The position numbers and the translations under genes are program-made. From the NCBI GenBank assembly GCA_963668625.2, contig CAXXKA010000006.1, positions 320,001 to 384,000 of the forward strand: a stretch of 64,000 nt of DNA, given 5' to 3'. How positions within the stretch are numbered: position 1 is the stretch's first letter; each line of letters starts with the position of its first letter. The DNA comes from an uncultured candidate division Zixibacteria bacterium. Lineage in GTDB: Bacteria; Zixibacteria; MSB-5A5; UBA10806; 4484-95. Of this stretch, positions 1 through 9,780 are shown in pieces. The notes under the pieces were generated by a model. That model was not told where the DNA came from. It searched no databases and worked only from the letters and a program-made list of their open reading frames with translations.

Positions 1-246
1 TGGCGGGATTATATTCAGCCACAAGAAGATTTTGATGAAATAGTAAAAGTATTGGAATATTATGGATTTGAAATCAGGCCTGGTAAGGGAAGTCATTGGG
101 TTGTTAATCATAAAGATTTAGACCGGGAAAAATGCAAAGAATTAGGTGGGAGAAGTGAGTTTACCGTTCCCACAATAAAGGGTCGCAAAGTAATTAAAGT
201 GTATGTGAAAAGAATACAAAAATATATCGATCTATTGGAGAAATAA
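1..246 (+). CDS. hicA: HicA-family toxin (N-terminus truncated by window edge)
   Basis: Frame open from base 1 (..FDEIVKVLEYYGFEIRPGKGSHWVVNH..); GSH motif and TVP..VIKVYVK tail typical of HicA; directly upstream of hicB. Confidence 0.8.
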   Translation, partial: WRDYIQPQEDFDEIVKVLEYYGFEIRPGKGSHWVVNHKDLDREKCKELGGRSEFTVPTIKGRKVIKVYVKRIQKYIDLLEK

Positions 247-774
247 ATGAGTAGTCAATTAAAAGATTTAGCTAAATACATGGCATATAACTACCCAATA
301 GAGATACTGAAATTGGATGATAACGATGGCGGAGGTTACATTGCAGAAATCCCTTTTCTGGGCAAGGATGCTTTTACCGGACATGGTGAGACAGTCGAAG
401 AAGCATTAATAAGCTTGAATGAAATTAAAGAATTTTTATTTGAAGATTATCTTAAAAACGGCATAGAAATTCCTCCTCCGCCAAAAGATGAAAATTATAG
501 CGGGAAATTCGTTGTTCGTGTACCAAAATATTTACATCGTGCTCTTTCGGATAAAGCCAAAACTGATGGCGTTAGCTTGAATACCCTATGCGTTTCTCTA
601 TTAAGTCAAGGCTACGGTGTTGATGATATTAAAAAATATTTTGAGACAATGTGTATAGAAATGAGAGGAATAAAATCTAAAATTGAGCAATACGCTTTCT
701 CTGAAGATCTGATAGAACCGTTTCCTCGCAATGTAGCTTATTTCCCATCAAAGGATTTAAAAAATGCCTCGTAA
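247..774 (+). CDS. hicB: HicB-family antitoxin with RHH domain and C-terminal extension
   Basis: GGYIAEIPFL..GETVEEAL..IEIPPP HicB core; YSGKFVVRVPKYLHRAL..A..GVSLN RHH; extra ~55 aa tail. Confidence 0.85.
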   Translation: MSSQLKDLAKYMAYNYPIEILKLDDNDGGGYIAEIPFLGKDAFTGHGETVEEALISLNEIKEFLFEDYLKNGIEIPPPPKDENYSGKFVVRVPKYLHRALSDKAKTDGVSLNTLCVSLLSQGYGVDDIKKYFETMCIEMRGIKSKIEQYAFSEDLIEPFPRNVAYFPSKDLKNAS

Positions 775-1213
775 CTATGAATATAATATATCACCAGAAG
801 ATTATCAGGAAATCCTTAAGGATTTAGAAATTCGATCATTATCTCTTGTAGATTTGTCATATAGTTGTTTAAAGGATGAAGTTGAAAAGAATCCCGTAAA
901 GCTCGATTTAAAAACTGATGCGTCATTAAAAAAGCAAGCGGAAGGCATTGCTACTATTATATATAATTTCACTTTAACAGGTATGATTAAACAGAAATCA
1001 GCATTAAAGATAAGTGGCAAATATTTTGTTGAATTTAATACGGTAAGTGAAGTAACTAAAGAATTTCTGGAAGTATTTAAAGAGTATTCCTTAAGGCTCC
1101 TGATGACACCTTATTTGAGAGATTTATTTTATAATTTATCCATGCGTTCTGATTTACCTGGTATTGTACTCCCGTTAATGAAATTCTTCCCAACCGATAA
1201 AAAACTGGCATAA
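764..1213 (+). CDS. SecB-like chaperone
   Basis: 149 aa, overlaps the hicB stop; C-terminal PYLRDLFYNLSMRSDLPGIVLPLM resembles the SecB PY.R..i..lt...g.Pp..LP motif. Confidence 0.7.
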   Translation: MPRNYEYNISPEDYQEILKDLEIRSLSLVDLSYSCLKDEVEKNPVKLDLKTDASLKKQAEGIATIIYNFTLTGMIKQKSALKISGKYFVEFNTVSEVTKEFLEVFKEYSLRLLMTPYLRDLFYNLSMRSDLPGIVLPLMKFFPTDKKLA

Positions 1214-1242
1214 AAAAAGCGGAAGTTACCCCTCCGCCTTTT
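1212..1242. terminator. Likely bidirectional intrinsic terminator
   Basis: A-tract, GCGGA..TCCGC stem, T-tract between convergent genes. Confidence 0.55.
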
Positions 1243-1265
1243 GCGCATTGCCCTCCCTGGCGTTG

Positions 1266-1817
1266 CTAGAAATCTAATTTTACATTATCTGTCTTTTCAA
1301 ATAGGTATTGGCCAGCGCCTACGAATATCCTGAAACTGGTTGGCGATAATTGCTCGTATTCCGCGAAATAATCACGCTCGCCATTGGGTTGGAAATATAT
1401 ATCGGTTATCTGGAAATCATACTTACCTTTCTCGGTAATATCACCCTCGATATTGTCATTTATCATTATCCAGTATCGGTTATTGGTAAATTTTGCCATG
1501 GCTATTTTCGTATTGGCGCCTTTGAGTACTCCCAGGTATGTGCCATTGGGCCTTATGGGGTTCTGTGATGCTTTAGGCTCGTACTCCTCGGGCGCTACCA
1601 TTTTCATGACCTGTTTGTAGATATCTTCATCTGTCCCCAACTCTGGAGTGTCTTCCTGCATCAACTTGCTTACCTGTTCCTGTCGCTCGAATATGAATTT
1701 CTTTTGCTGTTCGATTTTAGGCTTAACCTTCTCGTAACCCTTGTCGGTAACATAAGTCCAGGCGAACATCAACAAAGCAAATGTTACCAGCGAGGATAAT
1801 ACTATTCTCATATTCAT
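1266..1817 (-). CDS. Hypothetical membrane-anchored protein
   Basis: 183 aa ORF, AGGAG RBS upstream, N-terminal hydrophobic segment. Confidence 0.6.
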   Translation of the reverse strand: MNMRIVLSSLVTFALLMFAWTYVTDKGYEKVKPKIEQQKKFIFERQEQVSKLMQEDTPELGTDEDIYKQVMKMVAPEEYEPKASQNPIRPNGTYLGVLKGANTKIAMAKFTNNRYWIMINDNIEGDITEKGKYDFQITDIYFQPNGERDYFAEYEQLSPTSFRIFVGAGQYLFEKTDNVKLDF

Positions 1818-2017
1818 ACGATCTCCTGACTGGTTTCTTTTACTTTGTATCGGTAATTGTCAAATTATTTTTAGGATTATATAGGATTATAAATGTTGGA
1901 TGTATCGAGGTTGACATGATATGAGTTTATAGCGTCCCATTGTTATATTATTCGGATACCGGGGAATATAATTCAATCGTGCGGCATCCAGGCTTCGAAA
2001 ATTAGGAGAGATGGGAA

Positions 2018-3598
2018 TTACATTCGCCTGAATACCGCTATATCGTAGTCATCTAAATCTATGCTCCATTGATCAAGATCGATACTGAACTTTATCGATT
2101 TGCTATTGTCATCGATAAAACCTGATTTAGGAGTAAATCCGTGAACATACTTTGCCAGCAAAGTATTAGTGTAATAATCGTATAATCCTATTTCGCCTTT
2201 ATCGAAACATATACCATAATGAATATCGCTCGAATAATTATTACCGGTTTGCTGTTCGTACTGCCAGCTTGAGTATTTTGGCTCGTGTGTATCATCCAAT
2301 TCTCCAATCAGGAGAATCCCTTTATCGCCTTCGGAGTTCGATTGAGTAATAAAATGGGAAGTCAGCGAATCCTCTATAATAGTGACTGTGAATTCCTCGC
2401 ACAAGTATCTATATTCGGAGTTATGTTTTCCTGATGGTTGATTGACCAAAACACCGCAACTGAGATTTGCTTCAGCGCAGTTATCATAAATGCGCGATAT
2501 ATCCTCCCAGCTTGCGTTGCAGATTTTGCATATTATCTTTTGAATATCTTCCGGCGAAAGGTTTGTAACATAACTTTCATCTCCGGATAGCCGCTGGTAT
2601 ATTTGCCGGAATGTATCGAATCCGTAATTTTCGATGATAGCCTCAACCAACAGCGCGCTTGAGGCATACGCGCCATCCACGCCGACCGAACAGGTGTAGA
2701 AACCGTTTACACTCAGGATACTGTCGATATCGATCAAATCCAGATTGTTCATCGCTGCGCCCCAATATTTTATCACAGCAGGCGATTTGCCCCATCTCCC
2801 GCCGAGACAGCAAGCTAAACCCTCTTGCACCAGGGGCAGTGTAAATAACGGAATTTCCTCTAAAGCGTAGTTTATTAATAGATGAGTTATTTCATGCGGG
2901 TGAGGCAGGTGACGGGTTATGATAGCATCGAAAGGAAAGCTGGTCATCCCGTGCGCGTCATGGCCGGTAAGTAATTTCATCTGATCTTGGTCGCACAGGT
3001 AATATTCGATCTTTCTTTCCGCCAAATATTCCATTTTTTCATCGGATATATCGAAAACCTCAGCCAGAGAATCGGTGTAATTATCAATAGCCTCGATGGC
3101 ATAGCTGTTTATCAGAGTGGAATCGGAGAAGATGATTTTGTAATACTGGGATTCTATAGTGTACCAACCTTTGGTAAAAAGATAGAGCGGCGAGCACAAC
3201 CGCCATCGTCCGTTTTCCTTCGTCAAGTAATAATTACTAACGATGGAATCACCATTAGAACAGATAGTGCTAATTGAGCCATGTGCAGTAACCGAATCTA
3301 ATATATCGGAGCTTATACGATGGTTCCATGAGTCGGTCGATAGATATTTCTTACCATATACATGCGGCGAGGCACAATCTATTTTTAAACTAACTCCCTC
3401 AAATGTTATCCCCAGGCTCTTAGATCTGGCAATATCGGTTTCTACCCATACGGATTCAGGAGGCATAATCTGGTTATCATGTAAAGCAATAAGATATCGA
3501 TGCAATAAATCATCAGGGGAGTTTTGAGCTATGGTTGGAGTGCTTGAAGATGCCAGTGTAATAAATATTGATATAATGACGTTTTTTAATATCTTCAT
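2018..3598 (-). CDS. Secreted putative zinc metallopeptidase (gluzincin-like)
   Basis: Signal peptide; HEITH motif followed ~20 aa later by QEGLA. Confidence 0.55.
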   Translation of the reverse strand: MKILKNVIISIFITLASSSTPTIAQNSPDDLLHRYLIALHDNQIMPPESVWVETDIARSKSLGITFEGVSLKIDCASPHVYGKKYLSTDSWNHRISSDILDSVTAHGSISTICSNGDSIVSNYYLTKENGRWRLCSPLYLFTKGWYTIESQYYKIIFSDSTLINSYAIEAIDNYTDSLAEVFDISDEKMEYLAERKIEYYLCDQDQMKLLTGHDAHGMTSFPFDAIITRHLPHPHEITHLLINYALEEIPLFTLPLVQEGLACCLGGRWGKSPAVIKYWGAAMNNLDLIDIDSILSVNGFYTCSVGVDGAYASSALLVEAIIENYGFDTFRQIYQRLSGDESYVTNLSPEDIQKIICKICNASWEDISRIYDNCAEANLSCGVLVNQPSGKHNSEYRYLCEEFTVTIIEDSLTSHFITQSNSEGDKGILLIGELDDTHEPKYSSWQYEQQTGNNYSSDIHYGICFDKGEIGLYDYYTNTLLAKYVHGFTPKSGFIDDNSKSIKFSIDLDQWSIDLDDYDIAVFRRM

Positions 3599-3745
3599 TT
3601 AATTAACGATTGCCATAAATATAATATCATTATATCTTTTTTACCGGCTTTGATAAATTTGGTTCCCACCGTTTCGCCACTATGTTCGGAACCGGTTATA
3701 ATAATCAAACGTTGTTTTTAAAGCCACTGACAGTGAGGAGATAAT

Positions 3746-4660
3746 ATGCGTGTCGAAAATATACTTGATGCAATCGGCAGAACGCCGCTGGTAAAACTTA
3801 ATCGACTGGTCAAACCCGGTTCAGCCTCGGTCTGGGGAAAGCTCGAAAGTATGAATCCCGGACATTCGGTAAAAGATCGTATTGCTTTTTCCATGGTCAA
3901 AACCGCCGAGGACAATGGCACATTAAAACCGGGTATGACAATAGTCGAACCGACCTCAGGCAACACTGGTATCGGCCTGGCTATGGTGGGAGCGGCTAAA
4001 GGCTATAAGGTGATTTTGACCATGCCGGAAACCGCCTCTGTCGAACGCCGCAACCTCATGAAACTGCTCGGAGCGGAACTCATATTGACTCCGGGGAATG
4101 ATGGTATGAAAGGCGCGATTGCCAGAGCCGAGCAACTGGTAAACGAGCACGGTTATTTTCAGCCGATGCAGTTTTCCAATCCGGCTAATCCCGAAATTCA
4201 CCGCCTGACGACCGCCAAGGAGATTATCCAGGATTTGGACGAGCTCAATCTCGATGCTTTCGTGGCCGGGGTCGGTACGGGAGGCACGATAAGCGGCTGC
4301 GGTGAGGTTCTAAAAGGCGTGTATAGCTGCAAGGTTTATGCTGTCGAGCCGGCGGATTCGCCGGTGCTTTCGGGCGGGCAGCCGGGTAAACATCCCATAC
4401 AGGGCATAGGCGCCGGTTTCATACCCGAAAATTATAATGAAAGCTTCGTTGATGATATTATCCCGATAGATAAAGATGATGCCATAAAAACCGCTCGTGA
4501 GCTTGCCCGTAAAGAGGGCATTCTTGCCGGTATATCAGCGGGGGCAAATGTCCGGGCCGCTCTGCAGGTGGCGGATAAACTGGGCGAGGGCAGTAACGTT
4601 GTCACCATCATTTGCGATACCGGCGAACGCTACTTATCCACAGCCTTAATCGAAAATTGA
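3746..4660 (+). CDS. cysK: Cysteine synthase A
   Basis: NPGHSVKDRIA PLP lysine, EPTSGNTGIGLA, GVGTGGT, IQGIGAGF. Confidence 0.95.
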   Translation: MRVENILDAIGRTPLVKLNRLVKPGSASVWGKLESMNPGHSVKDRIAFSMVKTAEDNGTLKPGMTIVEPTSGNTGIGLAMVGAAKGYKVILTMPETASVERRNLMKLLGAELILTPGNDGMKGAIARAEQLVNEHGYFQPMQFSNPANPEIHRLTTAKEIIQDLDELNLDAFVAGVGTGGTISGCGEVLKGVYSCKVYAVEPADSPVLSGGQPGKHPIQGIGAGFIPENYNESFVDDIIPIDKDDAIKTARELARKEGILAGISAGANVRAALQVADKLGEGSNVVTIICDTGERYLSTALIEN

Positions 4661-4699
4661 GGTTAACCAAAAACTACATTAACCGATCTATTTACAAGT

Positions 4700-5281
4700 A
4701 TGTTTAAGATTTATGATGATATCAAAGCGATCTATAAGAATGATCCCGCCGCGCAAAATATAGAATTTCTGCTGTATCCGAGTTTTCATGCGATTTTCTT
4801 TCATCGCTTCATTCACTGGATGTGGAAAACTCATGTGCCGTTTTTCCCGCGCTTGTTCTCGCAGTTAACACGATTTTTTACCGGCCTGGAAATTCATCCC
4901 GGGGCAACTATCGGCCGCGGCTTTTTCGTGGACCATGGCGCCGGTGTGGTTATCGGCGAGACAACGATTATCGGCGATAACTGTGTGCTTTTTCATAATG
5001 TGACATTGGGCGGAACCGGGAAACATCAGGGCAAAAGACACCCTACTATAGGAAATAAAGTTCTGATTGGCACCGGCGCTACATTATTGGGGCCGCTAAC
5101 GGTCGGAGATAATGTCAAAATCGGCGCCGGCAGTTTCATATTCATGCATGATGTTCCCGACAACTGCACTGTTGCCGGAGCGCCCGCGCGCATAGTCAAA
5201 CGGAATGGCAAGCGTGTCGATCAGCCGTTGCCGGAGACCAAAGTTGACCGGGCTCAGTTCGAGAATAACTCGGAACATTAA
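4700..5281 (+). CDS. cysE: Serine O-acetyltransferase
   Basis: DPAA, EIHPGATIG..FVDHGAGVVIGET, VTLGGTGK..KRHPTIG; next to cysK. Confidence 0.93.
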   Translation: MFKIYDDIKAIYKNDPAAQNIEFLLYPSFHAIFFHRFIHWMWKTHVPFFPRLFSQLTRFFTGLEIHPGATIGRGFFVDHGAGVVIGETTIIGDNCVLFHNVTLGGTGKHQGKRHPTIGNKVLIGTGATLLGPLTVGDNVKIGAGSFIFMHDVPDNCTVAGAPARIVKRNGKRVDQPLPETKVDRAQFENNSEH

Positions 5282-5429
5282 TCGAAGTCATTGTAAATAT
5301 GTATATTCATCAGTTTTGAGGGAACGATATCATCGGGATATTCTCTCGATTATTAAAGTCTCTTGACAAATCAATCGATTCAATAATACAAAACGGTTAA
5401 TTAAAAATAATTAGCGAAATGTATTTATC

Positions 5430-6515
5430 ATGACATACGACCGCTCTAAACCATATAACGATTTACCGCTCCTGCCACCGAGGGCCGAGATCGAAACGAA
5501 AGCCGTTCTCAAAAAGTGTATTGATGCCAACAAGGCCCTGGCCGAGTTGAAAGGCGCCGGCGATTTGATACCCAACCAGGCGATTTTGATTAACGCTATC
5601 CCTCTTCAAGAGGCGAAAATGAGTTCGGAGATCGAGAATATCGTGACCACCCAGGATGAACTATTCCGGGCGGCTATGGGGGATTCCTCCAGCGTTAACC
5701 CGGCCACTAAAGAGGTTGTCCGCTACAGAACCGCCTTGCGCTATGGTTTCGAGCAGGTTATGACCGGTGAACTGACCATGGAACTGTTGGTGAAACTCTG
5801 CGGGATTATCCGTAACGAGGAGGACATGACCATCCGCAATAACGAGGCGATTATCATACAGAACAGCGCTACCGGCGAGACTATATACACACCTCCACGA
5901 GGATTCGAGATCATACAATCGAAACTTCAGAACCTGGTTGAGTTTTTGGCTATGCAAGATCAACTCGATCCGTTGACCAAAATGGCAGTATCGCATTATC
6001 AATTCGAGGCAATTCACCCGTTTGAGGACGGCAATGGCCGAACCGGGAGAATCCTCAATATATTGTATCTTCTACAAGAAAAGATGTTGAACCTGCCTGT
6101 TCTGTACTTGAGTCGATTTATAATAGAGAATAAACAGGATTATTATAAGAAAATCCGGGCCGTAACCGAATCGGGGCAATGGGAGGACTGGATACTATAT
6201 ATATTGTCAGGTGTCGAACAAACCGCAAAGTGGACAACTGGCCGAATTAACGCCATTCGAGAGTTATTCGAGGCCACGGTCGAATATTGCCGTCAGTACT
6301 TGCCTTCTAATGTCTATTCCAAAGAGTTGATTGAACTTATATATGCCCAACCATATTGTAAAATCAAGTTCCTGGTAGATAAAGGCATAGCCAAACGCCA
6401 GGCGGCCTCGGAATACCTCAAGGAATTCGAGAAAATCGGCGTATTGAAAGGCGAAAAAAGGGGGCGAGAGGTTATCTATAAGTATCCCAAGCTGTTAGAG
6501 GTTTTGAACAAGTAA
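5430..6515 (+). CDS. Fic family protein adenylyltransferase (SoFic-like, C-terminal HTH)
   Basis: HPFEDGNGRTGR Fic motif; SSEIEN inhibitory helix. Confidence 0.92.
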   Translation: MTYDRSKPYNDLPLLPPRAEIETKAVLKKCIDANKALAELKGAGDLIPNQAILINAIPLQEAKMSSEIENIVTTQDELFRAAMGDSSSVNPATKEVVRYRTALRYGFEQVMTGELTMELLVKLCGIIRNEEDMTIRNNEAIIIQNSATGETIYTPPRGFEIIQSKLQNLVEFLAMQDQLDPLTKMAVSHYQFEAIHPFEDGNGRTGRILNILYLLQEKMLNLPVLYLSRFIIENKQDYYKKIRAVTESGQWEDWILYILSGVEQTAKWTTGRINAIRELFEATVEYCRQYLPSNVYSKELIELIYAQPYCKIKFLVDKGIAKRQAASEYLKEFEKIGVLKGEKRGREVIYKYPKLLEVLNK

Positions 6516-6525
6516 TAAATTTGCC

Positions 6526-6731
6526 ATCGACATATATTTGTAATATGTCGATATTTTGAGTAATTATCGACATGTTATAGCGATATACCATTTCATCGAC
6601 ATGTTTTTGAGATATGTCGATAAAACTTCCACAGATCGACATATCTTGTAGAAATATACATTTCATCGACATATTTATATGACATGTCTATATATATATT
6701 CTTAATCGACATGATTTCATAATGTGTCGAA
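6526..6731. repeat. Phased array of ATCGACAT direct and inverted octamers
   Basis: ATCGACAT at 6526, 6566, 6595, 6635, 6665, 6705; inverted copies at 6545, 6614, 6684 (variant), 6724 (variant). Confidence 0.8.
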
Positions 6732-6796
6732 AAAGAAGTGTGATATTCTTTTATCACTTTACCGAATATACATTTGAATGTATTTTCATTTTCTAT

Positions 6797-6840
6797 GCGG
6801 GAGTAGCTCAGTTGGTAGAGCACCCATCTGGGTTGTCGTG
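6797..6840 (+). pseudogene. Truncated tRNA-Gly mimic, copy 1
   Basis: First 26 nt identical to the tRNA-Gly at 7913; anticodon arm replaced by CCCATCTGGG; then TTGTCG as in the tRNA. Confidence 0.8.
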
Positions 6841-6857
6841 GACAATACTTAACTTGT

Positions 6858-7145
6858 ATGTTATATTATACTTACGTTTTATATAGTCTAAAAGATGGTA
6901 AATTATATATAGGCTCTACCTCAGATATTCTCAGGCGTATATCCGACCATAATCGAGGCAAGGTGAAATCTACCCGATACAGAGTGCCTTTTAATCTAGT
7001 GCATTATGAATCATTTGACTCTAAATCCGCATCACTAGCTAGAGAGCGAGAGTTAAAAAGTATCAAGATGCGTGATTTTAAGCGGGAACTGCGCAGTCAG
7101 GGCAAATTCGGTCAATTTTTATCACTTGACGATTTAACTAATTAA
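6858..7145 (+). CDS. Small GIY-YIG nuclease, copy 1
   Basis: YYTYVLYS..LYIGST.DI.RR..HN.G..ST..P..LV.YE.F..A..RE..LK. Confidence 0.9.
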   Translation: MLYYTYVLYSLKDGKLYIGSTSDILRRISDHNRGKVKSTRYRVPFNLVHYESFDSKSASLARERELKSIKMRDFKRELRSQGKFGQFLSLDDLTN

Positions 7146-7164
7146 GTGTATTTTTATTTTCTAT

Positions 7165-7208
7165 GCGGTAGTAGCTCAGTTGGTAGAGCACCCATCTGGG
7201 TTGTCGTG
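7165..7208 (+). pseudogene. Truncated tRNA-Gly mimic, copy 2
   Basis: As copy 1 with one change (GCGGTAG). Confidence 0.8.
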
Positions 7209-7225
7209 GACAATACTTAACTTGT

Positions 7226-7513
7226 ATGTTATATTATACTTACGTTTTATATAGTCTAAAAGATGGTAAATTATATATAGGCTCTACCTCAGATATTCTC
7301 AGGCGTATATCCGACCATAATCGAGGCAAGGTGAAATCTACCCGATACAGAGTGCCTTTAAATCTAGTGTATTATGAATCATTTGACTCTAAATCCGCAT
7401 CACTAAATAGAGAGCGAGAGTTAAAAAGTATCAAGATGCGTGATTTTAAGCGGGAACTGCGCAGTCAGGGCAAATTCGGTCAATTTTTATCACTTGACGA
7501 TTTAACTAATTAA
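7226..7513 (+). CDS. Small GIY-YIG nuclease, copy 2
   Basis: 3 aa differences from copy 1. Confidence 0.9.
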   Translation: MLYYTYVLYSLKDGKLYIGSTSDILRRISDHNRGKVKSTRYRVPLNLVYYESFDSKSASLNRERELKSIKMRDFKRELRSQGKFGQFLSLDDLTN

Positions 7514-7532
7514 GTGTATTTTCATTTTCTAT

Positions 7533-7576
7533 GCGGGAGTAGCTCAGTTGGTAGAGCACCCATCTGGGTTGTCGCG
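7533..7576 (+). pseudogene. Truncated tRNA-Gly mimic, copy 3
   Basis: As copy 1; TTGTCGCG matches the tRNA variable loop and T-stem start exactly. Confidence 0.8.
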
Positions 7577-7593
7577 GACAATACTTAACTTGT

Positions 7594-7893
7594 ATGTTAT
7601 ATTATACTTATGTTTTATATAGTCTAAAAGATGGTAAATTATATATAGGCTCTACCTCAGATATTCTCAGGCGTATATCCGATCATAATCGAGGCAAGGT
7701 AAAATCTACCCGATACAGAGTGCCTTTTAATCTAGTGCATTATGAATCATTTGACTCAAAATCCGCATCACTAGCTAGAGAGCGAGAGAGTAAGCAAGAG
7801 TTAAAAAGTATCAAGATGCGTGATTTTAAGCGGGAACTGCGCAGTCAGGGCAAATTCGGTCAATTTTTATCACTTGACGATTTAACTAATTAA
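7594..7893 (+). CDS. Small GIY-YIG nuclease, copy 3 (4-aa insertion)
   Basis: Protein identical to copy 1 except an in-frame SKQE insertion. Confidence 0.9.
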   Translation: MLYYTYVLYSLKDGKLYIGSTSDILRRISDHNRGKVKSTRYRVPFNLVHYESFDSKSASLARERESKQELKSIKMRDFKRELRSQGKFGQFLSLDDLTN

Positions 7894-7902
7894 GTGTATT
7901 TT
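7874..7902 (+). promoter_or_regulatory. Sigma70-type promoter of tRNA-Gly (repeated in each unit)
   Basis: TTGACG-17 bp-TATTTT; the -35 lies inside the 3' end of the GIY-YIG ORF. Confidence 0.65.
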
Positions 7903-7912
7903 TATTTTCTAT

Positions 7913-7985
7913 GCGGGAGTAGCTCAGTTGGTAGAGCAGTAGCCTTCCAAGCTACTTGTCGCGAGTTCGAACCTCGTCTCCCGCT
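7913..7985 (+). tRNA. tRNA-Gly(TCC)
   Basis: GCGGGAG/CTCCCGC acceptor, GTAGC-CTTCCAA-GCTAC anticodon arm, GTTCGAA T-loop; CCA not encoded. Confidence 0.95.
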
Positions 7986-7994
7986 TTGTTATCC

Positions 7995-9389
7995 TTAACT
8001 GAAATCCTTGCCTAATAGTATCACCGCTAAAATCACCGCTAATATCGCGATCGGGGCGGTAAATCTTATAAAGAATCTGAACATCTTATATACGAAAGTA
8101 GGATTTCCGTTTTTATCATACATTCCCAGTTCTTTCTCGACAATCTTTTTATCCAGTGTCCAGCCGACGAATATAGTAATTAATAATCCGCCCACCGGCA
8201 ACATCCAGTTGGCTGCGAGATGATCGAGGGTGCTTAATATACCCTCTTTGCCGGGGCCAAATATCGACCAGCTCGATAGAAAGCCAACCGCGCCAAGCGA
8301 TAACGCCGATAGTATAGAGACAAAATATGCCAGACCAGCGCCAATTAAAGTTGCCGTGTGGCGTTTTACGCCTAGCTTATCGATGAATAGTGATACTATC
8401 ACCTCCAGCAAAGAAATAGTGGAGGAGAGGGCGGCGAATGCCACCAGTATATAAAATATCGGGGCGATTATCGGTCCGAATGGAATGTGAGTGTAAAGCA
8501 AATCGGGAAGAGTGATAAACAGCATTCCAACGGTCGAACCGGATACGCTTTCAGCCACCTGTGGAACCGAGAATATGATCGTATACATGATTATACAGGC
8601 GCATATAGCGACGAAAGTATCCAGGAAAACCACCATAGTCGCGTTGCGTGCAATCGATTCTTTTTTGCTGATATATGAACCGTAGGTTATCATCACGCCC
8701 ATACCCAGCGATAGAGTAAAGAATGCATGACCAACTGCCTCAAGCACTCCCTCCCAGGGAAGCTGTCCGAAATTCGGCCTGAAAAGAAACTGGAAAGTTT
8801 GTTCGCGGCCGGGTAGAAACATGACCATAATTACCAGGTAAATAAGTATTAAAAACAAAATCGGCATCAGTATTCGTGTCGATTTTTCGATACCCTTGTT
8901 AATTCCGCGCCAGACAATGAATGCCGTGGCGGACAAGAACAGGAATGAGAGTAACAATTGAAGCCGGCCGTTGCCGATGAATTCACCGAAAGCGGTATCC
9001 GGCGGTTTGACATATCCGGAGATACTCCATCTGATGCAATCTATGAATGAGGTTATTGTCCAACCGGCTATAACCGAGTAATATCCGAGGATGACGAAAC
9101 CGGTGAGCACTCCCAGCCAGCCGACCAGGCTCCAACCTTTGGTGCTGATTTTCTCGAATGCCGGCACAGGGCTTTCCTGTGTTTTGCGGCCGATCAGTAT
9201 TTCGGCCATCATGATAGGCCAACCGATAAGCACCACGCTTATCAGGTAGACTATAACGAATGCGCCGCCATTGTTATGCCAGGTGATATAAGGGAATTTC
9301 CACAGATTGCCAAGGCCAACCGCACTGCCCGTGGCTGCCAGTATGAATCCGATTTTACTGCGCCAATGATCTCGCTCTGTTTGTTGCAT
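7995..9389 (-). CDS. Sodium-dependent transporter (NSS/SNF family)
   Basis: W.SKIGFILAATGSAVGLGNLWKFPY...GGAF; AFFTLSLGMGVMITYGSY. Confidence 0.93.
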   Translation of the reverse strand: MQQTERDHWRSKIGFILAATGSAVGLGNLWKFPYITWHNNGGAFVIVYLISVVLIGWPIMMAEILIGRKTQESPVPAFEKISTKGWSLVGWLGVLTGFVILGYYSVIAGWTITSFIDCIRWSISGYVKPPDTAFGEFIGNGRLQLLLSFLFLSATAFIVWRGINKGIEKSTRILMPILFLILIYLVIMVMFLPGREQTFQFLFRPNFGQLPWEGVLEAVGHAFFTLSLGMGVMITYGSYISKKESIARNATMVVFLDTFVAICACIIMYTIIFSVPQVAESVSGSTVGMLFITLPDLLYTHIPFGPIIAPIFYILVAFAALSSTISLLEVIVSLFIDKLGVKRHTATLIGAGLAYFVSILSALSLGAVGFLSSWSIFGPGKEGILSTLDHLAANWMLPVGGLLITIFVGWTLDKKIVEKELGMYDKNGNPTFVYKMFRFFIRFTAPIAILAVILAVILLGKDFS

Positions 9390-9780
9390 CCTCACTCCTC
9401 ATCGTACGAATACTGTATTTCTCAAAATTCGATTTAAAGGCAATAAACCGGCTAAGAAAGAGCTTATTTCAAAATTATTTAGCTGGAATATGATTAAATA
9501 ATTAATTGCATTTTTTGTCAAGACATTTCCCGAGACTGGCTGACATGAAGCATTTGCGAGGGAAACTGATAGCTTTTTGTAATTATTTATCTCATTTTGG
9601 AACAATCATTCAGGGGGAAGTGTTAATAATAGCGTTTAGTATACTATTATAGACCGCTGGAGTGATTATTGGTGGCCGGGGGTAGTTGCATATAAGTCGT
9701 TGTATTAATTGTCAGTTATGCCGGTTAAGCAATTGACTTGCCAACCGATAAAAATATTTATTGATAGGGTGAAAAAGTCC

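Follow-up and report, generated by a model that had tools for sequence, protein, structure and literature searches.

Background

In the REP elements with their RAYT transposases, and at the subterminal hairpins of the IS200/IS605 elements, a small nuclease gene is found together with GC-rich palindromic hairpins, and I-TevI represses its own synthesis through an operator at its own promoter region, which is a non-cleavable mimic of the homing site. Here we describe a tandem array of small GIY-YIG nuclease genes and partial tRNA copies ahead of the tRNA-Gly(TCC) gene of an uncultured Zixibacteria bacterium (GenBank assembly GCA_963668625.2, contig CAXXKA010000006.1, positions 320,001 to 384,000); this 64,000-nt stretch, the whole of the DNA analysed, is called the window, and all coordinates are positions within it. 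The nearest published work is that on SegB of phage T6 and the general literature on partial tRNAs made by integrases. According to the accessible part of the report on SegB (PMC13096335), this GIY-YIG enzyme cuts inside tRNA genes, with an enriched motif RAWTSGAAC, and drives UvsX/UvsY-dependent tandem amplification of a 718-bp tRNA-Tyr and segB unit by way of microhomology; in phages segB lies significantly near tRNA genes of many isotypes.

We establish below the anatomy of the array, the same-strand linkage of such nuclease genes to tRNA genes, the partial copies of the cognate tRNA ("pseudo-tRNAs") that flank them, the conservation of a hairpin within these copies and a presence/absence polymorphism at the tRNA locus. 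Small GIY-YIG genes that lie at tRNA genes are found in many bacterial phyla, and the cassette belongs to this large class. We read the array, with what we would call an even chance of being right, as a selfish, homing-like cassette that would target tRNA genes in a manner akin to phage SegB, the pseudo-tRNA being both a disabled copy of the target and an arm for recombination.

Anatomy of the array

Tandem Repeats Finder reports a 368-nt unit in 3.1 tandem copies at 6779–7938, with 96% matches. The unit contains a copy of the tRNA promoter region, a pseudo-tRNA and an intact open reading frame (ORF) for a 95–99-amino-acid GIY-YIG protein, and the array terminates in an intact tRNA-Gly(TCC) (7913–7985; 70.6 bits with the Rfam tRNA model), which is the sole gene of that type among the 46 tRNA genes found in the genome. 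The features are as follows, with tRNA numbering by tRNA-Gly(TCC) position:

6758–6796, plus strand: weaker promoter-like region before copy 1 (TTTACC 6758–6763, 17 nt, TATTTT 6781–6786, 10 nt to the pseudo-tRNA)
6797–6822, plus strand: pseudo-tRNA 1, 5' part, tRNA-Gly(TCC) positions 1–26 (acceptor 5' strand and full D arm); 26/26 against 7913–7938
6823–6832, plus strand: hairpin H, CCCA-TC-TGGG (with flanks ACCCA-TC-TGGGT), replacing the 17-nt anticodon arm; conserved in relatives
6833–6845, plus strand: tRNA positions 44–51 resumed (TTGTCGTG), then GACAA; possible second hairpin
6858–7145, plus strand: GIY-YIG ORF 1, 95 amino acids, catalytic domain only; PF01541 E 3.6e-15
7126–7154, plus strand: promoter-like TTGACG-17-TATTTT of unit 2, its -35 hexamer within the last codons of ORF 1
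7165–7208, plus strand: pseudo-tRNA 2, positions 1–26 with one G>T, H at 7191–7200, positions 44–51
7226–7513, plus strand: GIY-YIG ORF 2, 95 amino acids; F45L, H49Y and A61N relative to ORF 1
7494–7522, plus strand: promoter-like TTGACG-17-TATTTT of unit 3
7533–7576, plus strand: pseudo-tRNA 3, positions 1–26, H at 7559–7568, positions 44–51 with C like the real tRNA
7594–7893, plus strand: GIY-YIG ORF 3, 99 amino acids; differs from ORF 1 by 12 inserted nt that keep the frame and by four substitutions, all synonymous
7874–7902, plus strand: promoter-like TTGACG-17-TATTTT of the functional tRNA
7913–7985, plus strand: functional tRNA-Gly(TCC), Rfam tRNA match

Copies 1 and 3 match tRNA positions 1–26 perfectly, and copy 2 matches at 25/26. 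At 6823–6832 the 17-nt anticodon arm GTAGCCTTCCAAGCTAC is exchanged for the 10-nt CCCATCTGGG, after which TTGTCG(T/C)G (6833–6840 in copy 1) takes up tRNA positions 44–51 again, with 8/8 matches in copy 3 and 7/8 in copies 1 and 2. The homology stops 3 nt short of the T loop, and the T arm and 3' acceptor strand are absent. Exact 26-nt matches within a tandem repeat exclude a chance origin of the tRNA likeness. An earlier note on 6797–6857, made from the sequence without database searches, had described the acceptor strand and D arm, the palindrome in place of the anticodon arm and the resumed tRNA sequence, and had argued that this is not a simple truncation; the description is correct and the arm swap is indeed precise. 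Its term "tRNA mimic" overstates the case, given the missing T arm and 3' acceptor strand; the Rfam tRNA model RF00005 gives no match at E <= 10 to 6797–6857 or to its repeats. The note also covered one leader; the leader-type stretch is present three times (6797–6857, 7165–7225 and 7533–7593), each time in a unit of a tandem array of a cassette that is widespread.

The three units differ by 11 point differences and the one 12-nt insertion. The hairpin is identical in all three and all three ORFs are open, copy 2 carrying three amino-acid changes. The insertion in ORF 3 (about 7785–7797) leaves the frame intact and places four extra residues, SKQE, in the helix that follows the region of the catalytic Glu.

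Promoters and the leader

Promoter-like TTGACG-17-TATTTT sequences precede units 2 and 3 and the real tRNA (from 7126, 7494 and 7874), each with its -35 hexamer within the final codons of the ORF before it, and the duplicated unit therefore includes the tRNA promoter region. The region ahead of copy 1, read by eye, is a diverged version of the same sequence; the promoter scan lists the internal copies and omits this weaker one, and the repeat itself begins at 6779. The scan of the region found 10 sites compared with 7.1 ± 3.2 in shuffled sequence, which is no excess, so the promoter reading rests on position and repetition and not on statistics. An alternative promoter, TGGACA-17-TATATT at 6839–6867, from which transcription would begin inside the ORF, was set aside. 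It is reasonable to suppose that in this window transcription of each ORF would start from a copied tRNA promoter, which would make the pseudo-tRNA the 5' untranslated region (UTR) of the message.

The earlier note had called 6797–6857 a nuclease mRNA leader, had remarked that the ORF lacks a Shine-Dalgarno (SD) sequence and had offered translation control among its possible functions. The remark on the SD sequence is right by a crude measure, the same for array and genome: the array ORFs have no SD-like 4-mer, compared with 46% of 2075 long ORFs of the genome that have one and 11% of random places. The leader is plausible in the window, where each unit has its promoter copy, but is not general. 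In many relatives the order is tRNA, ORF, pseudo-tRNA (L005, L006, L008, L009, L036, L050 and L089), with the pseudo-tRNA and hairpin downstream of the ORF, and for this reason a 5'-leader or translation-control role cannot be general and cannot define the element.

Related loci at other tRNA genes

Homologues of the protein were found in 51 of the 61 genomes searched, the window's own included, and are often in tandem or at contig ends. A search of the genome collection with a 7-sequence alignment (A3) gave 80 loci, which were pooled with the first 72 loci; after removal of L001–L003 (own genome, overlapping) and seven duplicates, 142 non-redundant loci with 167 ORFs remained. In the genome collection the homologues lie in Candidatus Zixiibacteriota, Ignavibacteriota, Bacteroidota, Calditrichota, Chloroflexota, many Patescibacteria and others. 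A tRNA gene is present within 200 nt of the ORF in 53 of the 80 genome-collection loci and for 88 of the 167 pooled ORFs, in all 88 cases on the same strand; for a random gene the expectation is below 1% (estimated from 46 tRNA genes in 4.3 Mb). The linked tRNAs include Gly-TCC, Asp, Ala, Ser (four anticodons), Met, Asn, Gln, Glu, Pro, Cys, Trp, Phe, Arg, Leu and Val.

For 85 ORFs a tRNA is adjacent and the available sequence extends far enough to inspect the far side; 72 of them (at least 10 nt) or 52 (at least 20 nt) have part of the cognate tRNA there, compared with 7/83 and 3/83 in a control stretch 400–610 nt further out. The order pseudo-tRNA, ORF, tRNA is found in the window and at L004, L010, L018, L019, L033, L037, L095 and L098. 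The tRNA-homologous segments are 96–100% identical to the adjoining tRNA, even where the tRNAs of the hosts differ, which indicates recent copying or ongoing gene conversion.

A GC-rich perfect hairpin with a stem of at least 5 pairs occurs in the non-tRNA part at the homology break in 48 of 87 distinct pseudo-tRNA regions (ORF-interior control, 11/87). It replaces the anticodon arm in Gly, Asp, Ala, Glu, Gln and Arg-CCT copies, the D arm in Pro and Met and the T arm in one Asp locus (L023), these swaps being located at helix boundaries, and it abuts the T loop in Met, Cys and Trp copies. At L019, L091, L095 and L150 a new stem is present while the 17-nt length and the anticodon-loop letters are retained. 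The arms of the 48 hairpins include CCCGCC/GGCGGG (18), CCCGAY/RTCGGG (12) and the shorter YCCR/YGGR of tRNA-Gly loci (4); very stable hairpins look similar in any case, so the shared arm motif carries little weight by itself. Perfect palindromes with two or zero central bases reach 32 bp (L099, L115, L133 and L146). We note that these four, three of which (L099, L133 and L146) are Patescibacteria tRNA-Trp loci, have palindromes of 24–32 bp with the centre TCGCGA, or GGATCC in L115; TCGCGA looks like a head-to-head pair of T-loop half-sites (in L099, TTCG|CGAA) and may be a footprint of break processing.

The ends of the tRNA homology cluster around the T loop. Among the downstream pseudo-tRNAs that reach the tRNA 3' end, 15 of 34 distinct ones start 0 to +4 from T54 (TTCGAATCC... 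or CGAATCC...) and another 11 at +8 to +10, and 12 of 31 upstream ones end at -1 to +6 (...GGTTCG, ...GGTTC). Copies linked to tRNA-Ser and tRNA-Gln have not had the T loop cut off but carry it in altered form (ATAAA for TT), and some Ser-/Gln-linked relatives have only a 17–20-nt 3' tRNA fragment.

Three further kinds of structure were seen at these loci. Pseudo-tRNA and hairpin units that lack an ORF occur at L007 (about 1957–2088), L008 (54–127), L036 (550–900, three 126-nt units) and L006 (1848–1894), repeated upstream of the real tRNA and some with a promoter-like TTGACT; they represent either what is left of cassettes or the element at a simpler stage. Often the nuclease ORF runs into the next tRNA or pseudo-tRNA and ends there (L089 at 1730–1745 and 2089–2104, L006, L009, L010 and L033); the TAG stop codon of L089 is part of the acceptor strand, where RNase P cleavage would take it off the message. 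The D-arm-swapped pseudo-tRNAs of L089 (1737–1812 and 2096–2171) and L084 (1741–1823) score 45.6 and 35.7 bits with the Rfam tRNA model, above its threshold, and are called tRNA-Pro by ARAGORN.

The hairpin

A covariance alignment of homologous GIY-YIG loci, the check that the earlier note had proposed, bears out its hairpin. The alignment holds 18 pseudo-tRNAs (15 distinct) from 10 tRNA-Gly(TCC) loci that are kin to one another. In the 5-pair helix at the anticodon-arm position 73 of 73 cells form standard pairs, 72 of them Watson-Crick and one G-U, and three of the five pairs have changed on both sides (A-T/G-C, T-A/C-G/G-C). The covariation score was attained by none of 500 shuffles, and slid controls pair at 3–48%. 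By this comparison the hairpin is kept through compensatory changes in the homologous tRNA-Gly loci; covariation events are few because the aligned loci are relatives.

The second hairpin of the earlier note, TTGTC-GYG-GACAA, is there as letters and is specific to the window: in L004 (same genus), L010 and L033 the resumed tRNA segment is followed by different sequence. An RNA fold with three hairpins has -11.3 kcal/mol and lies 4.9 kcal/mol above the minimum free energy (MFE) fold of -16.2, in which the D-arm strand pairs with the 3' arm of the hairpin, a pairing that by eye is not kept in L009. The 74 nt from 6797 to 6870 (leader and first 13 nt of the ORF) are not unusually stable relative to shuffles (z = -0.97). 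In Rfam only tRNA was matched, in the window region at E <= 10 and in 20 related loci at gathering scores.

The suggestion that the hairpin marks a REP-like substrate finds no support in the window's own genome: CCCATCTGGG occurs 13 times in 4.3 Mb, three of these in the array, and the 12-mer four times, three in the array, which is not the dispersal of a REP element. Another arm type, CCCGAY..RTCGGG, has 24 matches on both strands of this genome, which has no cassette of that type. Comparison by eye of the hairpin arms with the cognate acceptor stem and neighbouring sequence gave no consistent match of the kind a fold-back origin would leave. The hairpin may confer immunity from the nuclease, as the earlier note had suggested of the swap, may be a nuclease binding site or may be an RNA element.

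The nuclease

ORFs of the window match the Pfam GIY-YIG family PF01541 with E values of 3.6e-15 and 1e-15 (56.5 and 58.2 bits, cut-off 22.6), and ORF 1 matches the UPF0213 structures 1zg2 (BH0048; E 9.7e-10) and 1ywl (EF2693; E 4.1e-6). At 95–99 amino acids and a single domain, the protein is like the small UPF0213/YhbQ-like GIY-YIG proteins. Residues Y17, G19, R27, H31, E63 and K67 are invariant in 24 homologues and Y6 nearly so; we take these to supply the catalytic functions of the family (GIY Tyr, YIG Tyr-x-Gly, Arg and metal-binding Glu). The active-site residues are thus intact and nuclease activity is predicted. No separate DNA-binding domain was found, the protein consisting of the catalytic domain and a tail of about 15–25 amino acids, and a homodimer prediction scored 0.01, which is evidence for neither side. 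All three protein matches in the window's own genome fall in the array, which leaves no additional cassette ORF there.

A group I intron with its homing endonuclease does not describe the locus: no Rfam intron family overlaps the units at E <= 10, the real tRNA is uninterrupted, and the only NCBIfam match, to group I intron endonuclease, is at 18.7 bits under its cut-off of 56.

Site occupancy and phylogeny

Within the same family, five genomes of three genera (G003, G004, G006, G007 and G008) have a clean empty site, that is a tRNA-Gly(TCC) with its promoter and with no pseudo-tRNA, hairpin or ORF. The site is occupied in the window's genome (G000), in G001 and in G005, a presence/absence polymorphism at one locus. 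In G001, of the same genus, two or more units precede the tRNA, with an identical hairpin but a protein only 60% identical; in G005 the tRNA is followed by two units. Logan contigs of two DNA runs from one sample held no joint and no piece that spans the array, and so bear neither way on variation in copy number or on empty alleles.

A FastTree phylogeny of 160 proteins over 87 columns is weakly resolved. Its protein clades follow tRNA identity, and one clade linked to tRNA-Pro(CGG), with a common D-arm swap, joins Bacteroidota and Calditrichota with local support 97. Hairpin classes agree within protein clades; common descent explains this agreement equally well, so it is not usable as a test.

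A clade of 19 GIY-YIG proteins (support 100; most about 95 amino acids, range 65–122) has no tRNA nearby and is absent from the window's genome; its loci are L025, L028, L029, L031, L040, L045–L047, L052, L054, L057, L059, L062–L064, L066, L068 and L070. It may represent an ordinary cellular, non-mobile paralogue, and its existence means that UPF0213 membership does not imply cassette behaviour.

Possible vectors are few: a tblastn search with the window protein matched 6 of 50,697 phage records, weakly and none annotated as SegB, and four homologous loci lie on viral contigs, one of them beside a tRNA-Lys.

Possible mechanism and alternatives

If the array is a selfish cassette, its nuclease would break the DNA of tRNA genes. 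The probable site is the T-loop box TTCGAA or its vicinity, where the pseudo-tRNA junctions cluster, and recombinational repair through short tRNA homologies would copy or amplify the cassette and leave one working tRNA. The pseudo-tRNA would serve as the homology arm, and the arm swap together with the loss of the T loop would prevent it from being a target, a functional tRNA or a long direct repeat by which the ORF could be deleted. In the window the copied tRNA promoter would drive the ORF, so that the pseudo-tRNA would thus also be a 5' UTR.

Several points weigh against this reading. Cleavage and binding by the nuclease, like its expression, are putative, and a protein of about 95 amino acids lacks the DNA-binding domain that gives known homing endonucleases their specificity. 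The intact tRNA beside every array, with its T loop and anticodon arm, would stay a target; the junctions form a cluster around the T loop and not a single point; and vectors are rare in the phage records and viral contigs. The homologue of the same genus is only 60% identical yet has the same hairpin and layout, which suits long residence no less than mobility, and the empty sites could be losses and not gains. The loci are kin, so that the counts overstate independence, and the tree rests on its 87 columns. Finally, immunity or a barrier to recombination would by itself need neither a hairpin kept by compensatory changes nor a swap of arm for arm.

Since immunity or a barrier leaves the maintained pairing unexplained, two other readings of the hairpin, as a mark in the DNA and as a structure in the mRNA, stay alive. 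The former, in which the hairpin would be the nuclease's own recognition site (a DNA palindrome or extruded hairpin), the unit a self-contained mobile module that works in the manner of REP/RAYT or IS200-type ends or of an I-TevI-style autorepression operator, and the tRNA homology only a landing place, we consider unlikely. The nuclease is the only protein of the unit, arms with a C run on the 5' side and a G run on the 3' side are common across phyla and tRNA types (34 of the 48 detected), and perfect palindromes with 2-nt or no centres suit duplex DNA better than RNA; the pairing, Watson-Crick in 72 of 73 cells with one G-U, and the new stems built on a 17-nt arm with its anticodon-loop letters at L019, L091, L095 and L150 also speak for it. 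However, stable hairpins such as terminator stems look alike, as the 24 CCCGAY..RTCGGG matches in the window's genome illustrate, the window hairpin is undispersed (13 genome copies, three in the array), common descent of the whole cassette may account for the shared motif, and a donor site by itself leaves the spread unexplained. That the pseudo-tRNA and hairpin act instead as RNA, a UTR structure at the 5' or 3' end that stabilises the message, blocks or steers its processing by RNase P/Z or adjusts how strongly a toxic nuclease is translated, is in our estimate quite unlikely. The variable position relative to the ORF fits such a role poorly, although the hairpin falls in one UTR or the other in both layouts; the window copy, having no T arm or 3' acceptor strand, cannot be a substrate of RNase P or RNase Z. 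In favour are the tRNA scores that D-arm-swapped copies still reach (45.6 and 35.7 bits) and the position of the L089 stop codon, inside the acceptor strand of a pseudo-tRNA. The copied tRNA promoter ahead of each unit, the replacement of arms exactly at helix boundaries with a cloverleaf-like outline retained, and the compensatory changes in the stem also speak for an RNA role, but centres of two or no nucleotides are unable to form RNA loops, G-U pairs are almost absent, no Rfam family matches, the proposed fold lies 4.9 kcal/mol above the MFE fold and 6797–6870 is of ordinary stability (z = -0.97). A broader conception, which we hold tentatively and regard as rather unlikely, is that the nuclease and the hairpin in its partial tRNA copy form a two-part mobile module of a new type, in which the hairpin would be the cognate mark and the tRNA flanks, identical to the host tRNA, would aim the recombination at that tRNA gene, with retargeting by exchange of flanks and one working tRNA left; such a module would have spread to at least 15 tRNA isoacceptor types in Zixibacteria, Bacteroidota, Ignavibacteria, Chloroflexota, Patescibacteria and others.

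The remaining explanations concern the cassette as a whole. Break-induced amplification or repair at tRNA genes might benefit the cell, by tRNA dosage or by protection from integrating elements, and the nuclease then be a domesticated host function. SegB-driven amplification is adaptive for phage T6 in the part of PMC13096335 available, residence has been long enough for the protein to diverge within a genus, and the related 19-member clade looks like a housekeeping paralogue; but the amplified units hold disabled copies, by which tRNA dosage does not rise, and the distribution is patchy even within a family, and we think domestication improbable. Neutral debris, left by unequal crossing-over or slippage that duplicated the tRNA region around a resident gene, is disfavoured and we rate it very improbable: tandem repeats with short homologies arise easily, the units differ by just 11 point changes and one insertion and the second hairpin is not conserved, but the same architecture recurs at many tRNA identities in many phyla, with the hairpin kept by compensatory changes, the swaps at helix boundaries and the ORFs open. 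Integrases classically leave a partial copy of a tRNA next to the gene itself (PMC9897764, as far as its accessible text goes), and the 17–20-nt 3' fragment that is all some Ser-/Gln-linked relatives have would suit a miniature island that a tyrosine integrase, supplied in trans, had inserted, with the partial tRNA as the attachment-site duplication. The anatomy makes the chance of this negligible or nearly so, as a 368-bp unit with one 95-amino-acid ORF holds no integrase, the duplicated piece is the 5' part with its promoter and not the tRNA 3' part, and replacement of an internal arm by a hairpin is no product of integration.

Should the cassettes be selfish nucleases that target tRNA genes, bacterial chromosomes would have in them a counterpart of phage SegB, and tRNA genes would owe breaks, tandem arrays and assembly gaps to them. 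They would also cause spurious tRNA calls, the D-arm-swapped copies inflating annotated tRNA counts. How a nuclease that is a catalytic domain only finds tRNA genes is a question of specificity for which the conserved hairpin is the obvious candidate.

Other features of the window and genome

The genes that flank the array are a cysE-like gene (4700–5281), a gene for a Fic/DOC-family protein with Fic_N, Fic and SoFic-like C-terminal domains (5430–6515, plus strand) and, beyond the tRNA, an SNF-family transporter gene (7995–9395, minus strand). Directly downstream of the fic gene, and before the array, ATCGACAT(R)T motifs in both orientations are dense at 6520–6732. Seven exact copies lie in 6526–6674, together with degenerate ones, and none elsewhere in the window (0.39 expected); they are spaced about 29–40 nt apart and make up several inverted repeats. 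The cluster looks like iterons or operators.

Elsewhere in the same genome two mini-islands (G000:C5:203416-204108 and G000:C6:767545-768671) consist of a tRNA, a small unrelated ORF and a partial tRNA copy with its upstream flank. The one at tRNA-Arg(CCT) has a 140-amino-acid ORF and a copy of positions 1–27; the one at tRNA-Pro(TGG) has a 152-amino-acid ORF on the other strand and a copy that lacks the stretch around the T loop. Both are without a GIY-YIG gene. Five partial tRNA-Met 3' copies are scattered in the genome.

Comparison with known systems

The full-text literature searched, in which subscription journals are thinly covered and supplements fall outside, so that a prior mention is possible, gave no description of small bacterial GIY-YIG genes with arm-swapped pseudo-tRNAs. 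Unlike the tRNA islands made by tyrosine integrases, the unit described here has no integrase, is 368 bp long and is in tandem, and what it duplicates is the promoter and a 5' fragment, not the 3' end; a hairpin takes the place of an internal arm. In the accessible text of PMC9897764 "integrat" occurs 24 times and "GIY", "endonuclease", "nuclease" and "hairpin" do not occur. With the I-TevI operator the window shares a target look-alike at the promoter region of the nuclease gene, whereas in many relatives the look-alike is downstream of the ORF. The hairpin differs from those of the REP/RAYT and IS200/IS605 systems in lying inside a tRNA copy and in being undispersed, and the enzyme is of the GIY-YIG and not the HUH type. 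The UPF0213/YhbQ-like proteins (1zg2 and 1ywl) are alike in size and domain; those entries are titled "hypothetical proteins". Of the small genes annotated as "GIY-YIG nuclease family" or UPF0213, thousands of them without a function, many gain a context here, beside a tRNA with a disabled, arm-swapped copy.

The likeness to SegB, as described in the available part of PMC13096335, is that of a free-standing GIY-YIG gene among tRNA genes, in tandem units of a tRNA piece and a nuclease gene and at many tRNA isotypes, with an enriched motif that resembles the T-loop box, where the junctions cluster here. SegB, by contrast, is carried by phages and is a larger protein, in which a C-terminal part follows the catalytic domain, whereas the proteins described here have about 95 amino acids, are chromosomal and are of the UPF0213 type. 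According to the same part of that report, the SegB units carry a full tRNA, where those described here carry a disabled copy, and neither an arm-swapped pseudo-tRNA nor a conserved hairpin is described there for SegB. A free-standing GIY-YIG endonuclease at tRNA genes is of a known kind, and what would be new here is its companion structure.

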